Assembly (NCBI GenBank): GCA_040954595.2
Contig: CM082581.2
Location: 5,572,699-5,636,698 of the forward strand
Direction of reading: 5' to 3'
Source: Balanoglossus misakiensis
Lineage: Eukaryota > Animalia > Hemichordata
Length of the DNA: 64,000 nt
The notes below the pieces were generated by a model. It ran no database searches. It was not told the DNA's origin and was given only the letters and a program-made list of their open reading frames with translations. Of the stretch, positions 53,829 to 56,418 are shown piece by piece (positions within the stretch are counted from its first letter, which is position 1; every line of letters starts with the position of its first letter). The position numbers and the translations under genes were made by a program.

Positions 53829-54923
53829 ATGGCTATGGCTGCAGCACCTGGTCCAAGAGGGAAAGTTTTGTCTGACATCGATGAACAAATATTGATGTGT
53901 GCCATCTGTATGGAACGTTTTAAATCTCCTAAAATATTGCCTTGTTATCACACATTTTGTGAACCTTGCCTGAAAGAGTGGGTTAAAACAAACAACGGTC
54001 AGCTGATCTGTCCAACATGTAAAGAATTGCACCCTTTGCCCTCTGGAGACGTAAAAGCCATCACCAACAATCGCTTTATGAATGACCTACTTCAGCTTGT
54101 CAGCGACACCACTCCTGAGACCGAACAATCTGTCTGTGAAGGATGTGACAGTGAAGCTAAACACTGGTGCACAGACTGTGGTCAGTTCTTTTGTGATGAG
54201 TGCATTCGAGCTCACAGAGTTGTGAGGTCATTAAAAGATCATAAAGTGATGACAGTTGAAGAATACAATGAGAAAATGTCCTCACAGCATTTCAGAATGA
54301 TCCAACCACGATTCTGTGAGAGTCATCCTAGCACTCAGTTAGAATTCTACTGTGACACTTGTCAGCTGCCAACATGTATGAAATGTAGTATCGTTAAGCA
54401 CAAAGCGCCACAGCATGACATCATATCAATAGAGTCTGCGCTGGAGAAGTACATGCCAACTATGAAACAGTACACCAAGACAGTCGAGCAAAAAGTGATT
54501 GCTTTAAAACAAACAAAAAACAAAGCCCTTAACACCGGCAAGGATTATAAGGAAAAGAAAACAGTTGCCGAATCGCGGATAAAAAACTTATCTAAAAAGG
54601 TCATCAATAAAGTGAAAAAGCAAGAGGCAAAACTTCTTGCGGAAGTCAATGAAATGTATGCACCAAATTGTAAGCAAATTGATTCCAAGATAGAAACTTT
54701 AGAACATAAAATTGTCAATGCAGAAAGCATGCAATCTTATATGAATCACCTTTTGACCTTTGGTGGACCAGTGGACATCATGTCAGCCAAGAAGGAAATG
54801 GAACAACGACTTGGCCAGTGTGATCTGCATGATCCAAATGATGACGACCTTGAGAATGGACTGGTTTTCCAAGAAAATCCAAGATGCCTTCAGGTGGTAC
54901 TAGGCTGTGTCGTCAATGGCAAA
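53829..54923 (+). CDS. Gene A coding exon 1: TRIM RBCC module (TRIM56/TRIM45/TRIM2-3-like)
   Basis: [22 protein letters not shown]-box1 [19 protein letters not shown]-box2 CESH..FYCDTC..CMKC..H..H; coiled coil. Donor AAA|GTAAGT at 54924. Confidence 0.95.
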
Positions 54924-56418
54924 GTAAGTAGACTTCCTTAACTTAAATACCACAACCAATCGTTAAGAAAGTGATTGTGTCACTTGAATTACAATTGGAA
55001 TAGATGGAGTTGTGCTTGGCTCTCGTTAACATCGCTCATAGAGTCACATTTTGATTATTATTATTACAGGTTTTTTCAACTCTCAACACTTCCAATAGTA
55101 AACCTAGTCCACAGGGAGCTGTTTTTAAATCACTTTCTGCAAGCAGCAGTGAAACAACTGATCTACCCAGAAAAGGAAAAGACCCACAAGATAATGACTG
55201 TGCCATATGTCTTGATAAGATAAAGAAATCCAAAGAACTGCCCTGTAAACACAAATTCTGCAAGGCCTGCATCGACAAATCAGAGAAAAGAAGAGGACCA
55301 TCCTGTCCAGTTTGTAAGCAAGCCTTTGGACTCATCACTGGTAATATGCCTAACGGAACGATGAGAGACCGAGTGGATAGATTTTGTCATCTTCCTGGAT
55401 ATCCTCAGTGTGGTACTATTGTCATTGACTATGATTTCCCTTTTGGGACACAAGGGGTGAGAATTTAAGTGTTCTATCCTAAGCACACACATCATCAGCT
55501 GGACATGTAAAACTGACAAAACTCTTTGTTAAATTACTGATCTATCAATTGAGACACACACAATTTAAAGGATATGCAATACACTATATGTTCTTGTCAT
55601 TTGGGTTGATAAACTAACAGTGTATTCCAAATATGTCTTTTGCAGAAAGAACATCCAAATCCAGGCAAATATTACTTTGGAACAACTCGTACTGCTTATC
55701 TACCAGACAATTCTGAAGGTCGTGAAGTGTTAAAACTCCTGAAGATTGCTTTTGAACGTCGACTGACTTTCACTGTTGGTACTTCAATGACAACTGGTGC
55801 TACAGATGCTGTAACATGTAATGAGATCCATCACAAGACATCGCTTTATAGTGGACCGTAAGTTGTGTTACGGTTACAATATCAATACAATTTTCAGCCA
55901 GCATTTAAAAATACTCGGTTGTTTCTGGACCCTGTCCATGTATCTGTCTGGCTATATCTAATCTATCAATCAATCAATCAATCAATCAATCAATCAATAT
56001 CTATCTGTGTATGTCAATATTCAATCAGCATGCAGTTTCAGTCCGTACACATGCAGTTACAGATTTAATCATTTGGCAACACTTGTGAATTTTCATTCAT
56101 ATGAGATTTATAGTACCATTCAAAGTTAAAGACCATTTCGGTTTGGAAGGAATCTCACGCTGATGTTAATAGCAATGAAAATAGCTACAACGAACTGTGC
56201 GCACTGCAGGCGATCTTTTTAGACGTTATGATTTGTCATTTGAATAAAAGATTAACCAAAGAAAATGGCTTCTTTCTTGTTATTAAATAAAACATGAAAA
56301 CAGAGGTGGCCAGTTTGTTGTTAATTTGTCTAATTTCGTTTCTTCTAGGTTTGGTTATCCTGATCCAGATTACCTAAATCGAGTCAAAGAGGAATTGGCT
56401 GCAAAAGGTGTGAAGTGA
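53829..56418 (+). CDS. Gene A: TRIM(RBCC)-RING-Deltex C-terminal domain fusion E3 ubiquitin ligase, 587 aa; join(53829..54923,55070..55456,55646..55857,56349..56418)
   Basis: Four exons (1095+387+212+70 = 1764 nt) with canonical GT-AG introns in phases 0, 0 and 2, and no internal stop. C3HC4 RING, two B-boxes and coiled coil are followed by a second C3HC4 RING and the Deltex motifs [34 protein letters not shown] and [20 protein letters not shown]. Confidence 0.9.
55070..55456 (+). CDS. Gene A coding exon 2: Ser-rich linker, Deltex-type RING and start of DTC (missing from ORF track)
   Basis: Acceptor TTATTACAG ends 55069. Translates VFSTLN...[55 protein letters not shown]...[22 protein letters not shown]. 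Donor GGG|GTGAGA at 55457. Confidence 0.93.
55646..55857 (+). CDS. Gene A coding exon 3: Deltex C-terminal domain core (DTX3/DTX3L-like)
   Basis: Acceptor [75 protein letters not shown]; donor CC|GTAAGT at 55858. Confidence 0.95.
55965..55998. repeat. (ATCA)n microsatellite in the last intron of gene A
   Basis: Read directly. Confidence 0.9.
56349..56418 (+). CDS. Gene A coding exon 4: end of DTC and stop
   Basis: Acceptor TTTCTTCTAG ends 56348; (P)[22 protein letters not shown] is a typical Deltex C-terminus; TGA at 56416-56418. Confidence 0.93.

Follow-up and report, generated by a model that had tools for sequence, protein, structure and literature searches.

A 64,000-nucleotide stretch of the acorn worm Balanoglossus misakiensis genome (GenBank assembly GCA_040954595.2, contig CM082581.2, positions 5,572,699 to 5,636,698; hereafter the window) carries what is almost certainly a single fused gene, here termed gene A, in which a complete TRIM-type RING–B-box–coiled-coil (RBCC) module is joined in frame to the RING and Deltex C-terminal (DTC) domains of a Deltex-type ubiquitin ligase. 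Four exons separated by GT-AG introns give an intact coding sequence of 1764 nt, specifying 587 aa plus a stop codon with no internal stops. An earlier interpretation made from the DNA letters alone (the sequence-only reading) had predicted a 587-aa RING-BB1-BB2-CC-linker-RING-DTC product, with which the exons, introns and Pfam domains agree, and the coordinates it gave for the first intron and for the stop met by an unspliced transcript were reproduced. The features of gene A, in window positions, are as follows.

53829..54923, + strand: exon 1, encoding the entire RBCC, with RING1 (aa 24-64) at 53898-54020 and ending at a phase-0 donor
54924..55069, + strand: intron 1, 146 nt, phase 0, GT-AG, containing an in-frame stop at 54939-54941
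55070..55456, + strand: exon 2, encoding a 43-aa linker, RING2 (aa 409-447 at 55199-55315) and the first part of DTC
between 55456 and 55646, + strand: intron 2, 189 nt, phase 0, GT-AG
55646..55857, + strand: exon 3, encoding the DTC core with Cys552 (55817-55819) and the catalytic His556 (55829-55831)
between 55857 and 56349, + strand: intron 3, 491 nt, phase 2, GT-AG
56349..56418, + strand: exon 4, encoding the end of DTC with Phe566, the catalytic Glu580 (56392-56394) and the stop codon
56578..56676, + strand: candidate poly(A) hexamers 3' of the stop (ATTAAA at 56578, AATAAA at 56671), a consensus match only

Pfam analysis carried out exon by exon gave the domain order RING–B-box1–B-box2–coiled-coil–RING–DTC. 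Within exon 1, matches were obtained to RING PF00097 (aa 24-64, E-value 1e-11), B-box1 PF22586 (aa 102-140), B-box2 PF00643 (aa 160-201, E-value 2e-13) and the PML-like coiled coil PF12126 (aa 217-295); exon 2 matched a RING (E-value 2e-10) and DTC positions 1-38, and exon 3 matched DTC positions 40-109 (E-value 6e-31). Both RINGs have a complete set of zinc ligands (8/8 each). The adjacency of RING and DTC that marks Deltex proteins is present, as are the N-terminal RING, two B-boxes and coiled coil that mark TRIM proteins, and the tail consists of RING-DTC only, placing it outside the PRY-SPRY, NHL, filamin, PHD-bromo, FN3, MATH, ARF and transmembrane classes of TRIM C-termini. The donor at 54924 agrees with the consensus at 8/9 positions, a score of at least 8 being reached by only 21 of the 3791 plus-strand GT sites in the window, and neither AATAAA nor ATTAAA occurs in 54924-56243. 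The sequence-only reading had stated that no Met precedes the RING of exon 2, and indeed the earliest Met past the junction is residue 458, C-terminal of RING2. Since the donor is strong, no poly(A) hexamer intervenes and no Met precedes RING2, a separate Deltex gene starting within the 146 nt is unlikely.

Relatives were gathered into a set of 387 proteins (P numbers below) using the RING-DTC half of gene A (best 120 of 265 matches), the whole of protein P0009 against 1.84 billion representatives (best 150) and an Acropora fusion (best 120 of 561). The RBCC exon is closest to proteins of Ptychodera flava (up to 64% identity) and of Glandiceps talaboti, and P0026 and P0029 of Ptychodera and P0009 of Glandiceps talaboti (RefSeq XP_077992478.1, with two RINGs, B-boxes and DTC) align to residues 1-587 of gene A at 56, 55 and 51% identity, respectively, with 61-67% identity to relatives over the RING-DTC region. 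These colinear full-length relatives, together with a paralogue in the window, bear out the claim of the sequence-only reading that RBCC and Deltex RING-DTC belong to one gene. A B-box ahead of DTC was found in 36 of the 387 proteins, isoforms being counted apart and two Saccostrea isoforms having been added by hand, and these records span four phyla and represent 17 species, with one hybrid assembly in addition: acorn worms (two), amphioxus (two, and the hybrid assembly), stony corals (seven), a soft coral, an abalone, an oyster, tarpons (two) and a sardine. They are named in the databases as TRIM56-like, TRIM45-like, TRIM71-like, TRIM25-like or uncharacterised proteins, and some also contain macro or filamin domains. 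The N-terminal TRIM RING is kept in 36/36 records. A second RING was recognised in 28 of them; of the remainder, 5 have a degenerate one and 3 lack it. The catalytic His is present in 19/35 TRIM-linked DTC domains and replaced by seven different residues in the other 16, compared with 217/238 present and 21/238 replaced among other DTC domains, although isoforms and close paralogues enter these counts, which leaves the rows non-independent, and a word-based search is biased towards canonical motifs.

A second gene of TRIM-Deltex layout, gene B, which the sequence-only reading had overlooked, starts at 61032, 4.6 kb downstream of gene A.

61032..62147, + strand: gene B exon 1, encoding the entire RBCC, with a phase-0 donor at its end
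62347..62439, + strand: gene B exon 2, linker; an acceptor 3 nt earlier fits too
62873..63098, + strand: gene B exon 3, together with exon 2 encoding linker and an insert of 75 aa, weakly KH-like at best
63400..63911, + strand: gene B exon 4, encoding linker, RING2 and the start of DTC, the rest lying past the window end

Exon 4 of gene B ends at the same phase-0 position as exon 2 of gene A, and phase-0 boundaries are repeated. The best KH-like score for the 75-aa insert was 0.84, a lead only. Between the two genes the proportion of nonsynonymous differences (pN) is 0.31 for RBCC and 0.23 for RING2 and the DTC start; as the synonymous proportions (pS, 0.75 and 0.85) are saturated, no dN/dS ratio was derived. 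Colinear relatives of gene B are P0024, P0027 and P0030 (56-61% identity). In all of the closest relatives of gene B (P0024, P0025, P0027 and P0030) the catalytic His has given way to Arg, and the corresponding DTC core of gene B itself lies beyond the window.

Upstream of both genes there are sites resembling those bound by interferon regulatory factors (IRFs), including interferon-stimulated response element (ISRE)-like sequences, for which a regulatory function is suggested by motif match.

52524..52537, - strand: IRF-element-like site, 1.3 kb upstream of the gene A start codon
60793..60802, - strand: ISRE-like site, 230 nt upstream of the gene B start codon
60624-60635, + strand: looser ISRE-like site upstream of gene B

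The strict IRF motif has two matches in the 64 kb, one ahead of each TRIM-Deltex gene, a placement expected by chance with a probability of about 0.001 for a pattern picked after the sites were seen. Against a regulatory interpretation, the number of strict matches is by itself not significant (two or more in 11/100 shuffles, again for a pattern chosen post hoc). The looser pattern is not enriched (8 matches in the window, 19/100 shuffles), and the upstream regions of the two genes gave no significant alignment with one another (best E-value 0.065). IRFs with conserved GAAA-reading residues are described from invertebrates (PMC7819612), and the PARP14/DTX3L/PARP9 complex is interferon-induced (PMC13224862). 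An innate-immune role, put forward in the sequence-only reading as antiviral defence, is plausible, given IRF-type sites before both genes and an interferon-linked DTX3L-type donor lineage.

On balance we favour an inducible TRIM ligase of innate defence that would use DTC to read targets that are ADP-ribosylated or consist of single-stranded nucleic acid, and would ubiquitylate them. As RING1 is retained throughout while RING2 and the catalytic His are often lost, the constant core of the family is the TRIM RING plus DTC, which suggests that DTC serves as a reader in place of PRY-SPRY or NHL; judged from these patterns of retention, a reader module is its most likely role. In DTX3L, ADP-ribose and single-stranded nucleic acid share one DTC pocket in which His707 and Glu733 are required (PMC11460948), His707 being necessary for ubiquitin transfer (PMC11460948, PMC10810221). 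The antiparallel coiled coil of TRIM proteins holds a RING at each end, and these RINGs become active when substrate clusters them (PMC10105713), a behaviour in which close paralogues can differ (PMC9732051). The origin of the gene would lie in exon shuffling, a phase-0 RBCC cassette of a single exon having been joined to the final exons of a DTX3L-like gene, and its induction would run through IRFs. Dimerisation by the coiled coil would then present two DTC readers per dimer, and multivalent ADP-ribose or nucleic-acid targets would cluster the dimers and switch on the TRIM RING (RING1). In members with intact RING2, His and Glu, possibly including gene A, the Deltex unit might add a first ubiquitin to a ribose hydroxyl, a step that would not be obligatory in the family as a whole.

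The AlphaFold model of P0009 (mean predicted local distance difference test score 81.9) is confident over RBCC and over RING-DTC, whose blocks score mostly 88-98; a helix at 204-314 corresponds to the coiled coil and the linker at 377-417 is disordered; with a predicted template modelling score of 0.36, the placement of RBCC relative to RING-DTC is undefined. Its best structural matches are the RING-DTC of DTX1/DTX2 (6Y5N, 6Y22, 6Y3J), the DTC of DTX3L (0.8 Å) and the RING of TRIM2. Searches of ESM Atlas clusters of at least 50 members returned no cluster at or above 0.9 for either P0009 or the gene B insert.

The mechanism proposed in the sequence-only reading was an obligate two-step relay, in which neither RING is dispensable: the Deltex RING-DTC would attach the first ubiquitin to ADP-ribose or to a nucleic-acid end, after which chain extension would fall to the clustered TRIM RING. 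Such a relay is doubtful but is the strongest of the alternatives. Gene A itself retains the zinc ligands of both RINGs together with His556, Phe566 and Glu580; the two RINGs detected in 28/36 records and the His found in 19/35 domains include those of fish, abalone and most coral records, and a flexible linker of the kind modelled for P0009 would let the two RINGs meet. As a general rule, however, the relay fits poorly with a RING2 that is absent or degenerate in eight of the 36 records, with loss of the His from 16/35 domains and with a TRIM RING that is never lost, and the pocket of gene A is altered. Our best guess accordingly ranks a reader plus TRIM RING acting in innate defence above the obligate relay.

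The altered pocket raises a second possibility, namely that, within a genuine family, gene A is a duplicate undergoing decay or re-specialisation: its DTC would have lost ADP-ribose binding, and the protein would function like any other TRIM or in partnership with its paralogues. As the sequence-only reading had noted, the catalytic His and Glu are kept: His556 and Glu580 correspond to H582/E608 of DTX2 and H707/E733 of DTX3L, and Phe566 occupies the position of DTX3L Tyr719. That reading had missed two further changes in the pocket. Cys552 (TGT) stands where all 120 RING-DTC matches (best 120 of 265) have Trp, and a Trp occupies this position in 238/238 non-TRIM and 32/35 TRIM-linked DTC domains. 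In addition, the loop preceding the GYP motif has 7 residues, compared with 9 in 17/17 TRIM-DTC and 98/103 other matches (best 120 of 265). A splice-site shift was considered as the cause of the short loop and rejected, since neither an AG 6 nt upstream nor a GT 6 nt downstream is available as an alternative. The equivalent Trp in DTX2 hydrogen-bonds the ribose 3'-hydroxyl (PMC13714323). These observations weigh against ADP-ribose reading by gene A, and the Trp-to-Cys replacement and shortened loop, as seen in the predicted protein, probably alter or weaken its pocket, in which the Ser, Thr, Arg and aromatic position are retained. Location in a tandem cluster and rapid turnover of C-terminal tails would also suit a decaying duplicate. 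Against decay, the open reading frame, three introns, both RINGs, His and Glu are all intact and RING-DTC conserves the identity to relatives given above, and the Trp change involves one base and may be a polymorphism or assembly error. We regard decay or re-specialisation as improbable, somewhat more so than the relay.

The tail of gene A is of DTX3L-type origin, and the TRIM-Deltex fusion has likely arisen repeatedly. Separate trees of the two halves, proposed in the sequence-only reading as a check, were built for RING-DTC (51 rows, LG+G4, derived from a quick tree of 71/122 rows by dropping 26 near-duplicate, long or partial rows, gene B included, and adding 6) and for RBCC (47 rows, with long-branch warnings), alongside a FastTree of 251 rows. 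In the 51-row tree the TRIM label needs 9 changes, 7 of them forced by starred branches, and a single TRIM-linked clade appears in 0% of 200 bootstrap trees. An approximately unbiased (AU) test of 21 TRIM-linked against 30 other rows, with Saccostrea counted as TRIM on its N-terminal RING and B-box1 match, rejected the TRIM-linked Deltex halves held as one group (p=0.00019). The tails of the tarpon and sardine proteins nest within teleost DTX3L (99/92*), the RBCC of the tarpon protein, with a single B-box, groups as sister to a PRY-SPRY TRIM (99*), and the sardine RBCC is TRIM25-like; because these TRIM scaffolds differ, the fish fusions would be two separate events if the gene models are right. 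Stony-coral and amphioxus fusions are placed among unfused DTX3L-like proteins of their own groups. A 90/88 branch separates the acorn-worm RING-DTC rows from the rest of the 51-row tree, which holds no named unfused acorn-worm DTX3L; the unfused fragment P0156 joins these rows in the 251-row FastTree. The acorn-worm RBCC clade also bears NHL, OGFr, KH-like and WWE-PARP tails, a variety consistent with a single-exon, phase-0 RBCC cassette that splices to whichever exons happen to follow it.

A point against repeated origin is the clustering of acorn-worm and stony-coral Deltex halves in the 251-row FastTree (support 93), which is compatible with an older common origin for these two. Taken further, this clustering and the weak deep branches of the RBCC tree could be read as one ancient TRIM-Deltex gene with many losses and gene conversion with local DTX3L copies, whose role may be housekeeping (DNA damage, Notch). 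We consider that very improbable in view of the AU rejection and of the fish genes, in which RBCCs of different TRIM types carry tails that both nest in teleost DTX3L; a Notch role is further disfavoured by the lack of the WWE domain used by Notch-type Deltex proteins.

The fusion reading itself has points against it: the gene A intron junctions, 54923/55070 included, are predicted from DNA, every TRIM-Deltex relative is a gene prediction, no short transcript-like contig containing both halves occurred among the best 120 of 561 Acropora-fusion matches, and P0031 (Megalops cyprinoides) is an evident merge of two adjacent genes, so that some records may be annotation artefacts. The joining of DTX3L-like and TRIM-like sequences in P0170 (Coilia grayii) and P0031 suggests that such genes are neighbours in these fish, an arrangement that would favour both real fusion and annotation merges. 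That there is no true fusion at all, an RBCC-only gene ending at 54941 beside a separate or dead Deltex gene and the database fusions being neighbour merges, is the least credible alternative: it can draw on these merged records and on RBCC-only predictions in the clade (P0003, P0011 and P0021), but it has to contend with the 146-nt spacing, near-consensus donor, absence of a poly(A) hexamer and of a Met before RING2, and a join predicted in 17 species, often in several isoforms, and again in gene B.

Gene A resembles DTX3L (BBAP) in having a C3HC4 RING directly before DTC, its best solved match being 3PG6 (E-value 1e-24), in the equivalence of His556, Phe566 and Glu580 with DTX3L His707, Tyr719 and Glu733, and in the names of the RING-DTC-half matches (best 120 of 265), which are mostly DTX3L-like. 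It differs in that RBCC replaces the RRM-KH (and macro) N-terminus and adds an extra N-terminal RING, and in the Trp-to-Cys change and two-residue-shorter loop of the pocket; Pfam detected no RRM or KH in the gene A exons, and no PARP9 or PARP14 neighbour was seen in the 64-kb window. With TRIM2, TRIM3 and TRIM56 it shares a RING with flanking helices, B-boxes and coiled coil, the nearest solved RBCC sequences being those of TRIM3, TRIM2 and TRIM56, but it carries a C-terminal RING-DTC, not filamin/NHL, and two RINGs per chain. The RING-DTC fold is that of the WWE-RING-DTC proteins DTX1, DTX2 and DTX4 (P0009 model), whereas no WWE match was found in the scanned gene A exons and the loop and RING are of DTX3L type; Deltex is defined as WWE plus RING in PMC2770060. 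An evolutionary parallel is provided by the convergent Branchiostoma TRIM-MATH fusions described in PMC3503706, likewise a lineage-specific C-terminal graft on a two-B-box TRIM by recombination, although in TRIM-Deltex the grafted part is a ligase unit in its own right and the graft is repeated across four phyla.

The sequence-only reading had stated that no TRIM class with DTC or with two RINGs was described, and this held in the literature searched: full-text searches, mostly judged by listing and with subscription journals largely outside their scope, yielded no description of a TRIM-Deltex fusion. Neither deltex nor dtx is mentioned in the main text of Marin 2012 (PMC3503706), in Boudinot 2011 with its five supplements (PMC3137616) or in a grass carp TRIM survey (PMC8698530), and the TRIM C-terminal domains given in passages of the survey do not include DTC. 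The accessible text of a DTX3L-evolution preprint covering 126 species (10.64898/2026.04.23.720386) contains none of the terms 'TRIM', 'B-box' and 'fusion', while its Figure 1d and supplements, dealing with domain architectures, may bear on the matter. TRIM-Deltex is best called an apparently undescribed, uncharacterised variant joining two known E3 families and visible to any InterPro query. Overall, the single fused gene, the lack of prior description and the plausibility of an innate role in the earlier interpretation stand; it took the pocket of gene A as intact, and it did not see the recurrence in four phyla.

The TRIM family gains a C-terminal class and a two-RING layout, and the fusion would let TRIM ligases act on ADP-ribosylated or nucleic-acid substrates in innate defence, pointing to ADP-ribose-based defence in animals without interferon. 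How a ubiquitin placed by Deltex on ADP-ribose or nucleic acids is extended, and the cellular role of these marks, are described as open questions (PMC13224862). Chains naturally carrying both a Deltex and a TRIM RING, with natural losses of RING2 or His, constitute a test set for reader, priming and extension roles, for which the compact 477-aa tarpon protein P0032 would be a convenient model. A bolder and rather speculative possibility is that animals have put together TRIM-Deltex, as a TRIM class so far unrecognised, on five or more occasions (two of them in teleosts), and that it forms one arm of a recurring TRIM ADP-ribose toolkit of TRIM-PARP writers, TRIM-macrodomain readers and TRIM-Deltex ligases, with sister RBCC scaffolds possibly heterodimerising via their coiled coils, so that one IRF-induced assembly would do what PARP14/PARP9/DTX3L do in mammals. 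If so, such an assembly would place an ADP-ribose mark on foreign RNA or protein, ubiquitylate the mark and build the chain.

Several further domain combinations were encountered in the gathered proteins. P0143 (Glandiceps XP_077991496.1) is an RBCC-WWE-PARP protein whose RBCC is sister to that of TRIM-Deltex P0009 (99*), and P0274 (Acropora digitifera XP_015771569.1) is an RBCC-PARP protein 85% identical to the RBCC side of an Acropora TRIM-Deltex. Coral-like ENA records P0284-P0287, P0300-P0302, P0305 and P0308 combine RBCC with a macrodomain, with or without filamin (precomputed Pfam), and may be first exons of longer genes. In P0349 (ENA record, 895 aa) RBCC-filamin is followed by an IBR domain and an RBR C-terminal domain, another TRIM joined to a second ligase module. 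In P0008 (Ptychodera flava) an RBCC from the gene A clade runs into the beginning of an OGFr domain. P0141, P0142, P0144, P0149 and others contain RING-DTC or DTC units in tandem, two or three per protein.

Elsewhere in the window, two tandem protein-kinase fragments at 49224-49816 and 50683-51210, with 74% DNA identity, look like pseudogene pieces. An 81-nt near-palindrome is present at 57797-57877, and a direct repeat pair of 81 nt (starting at 59752 and 59984, 88% identical) spans 59752-60064. Short simple-repeat runs occur at 55962-55997 and 62670-62770.

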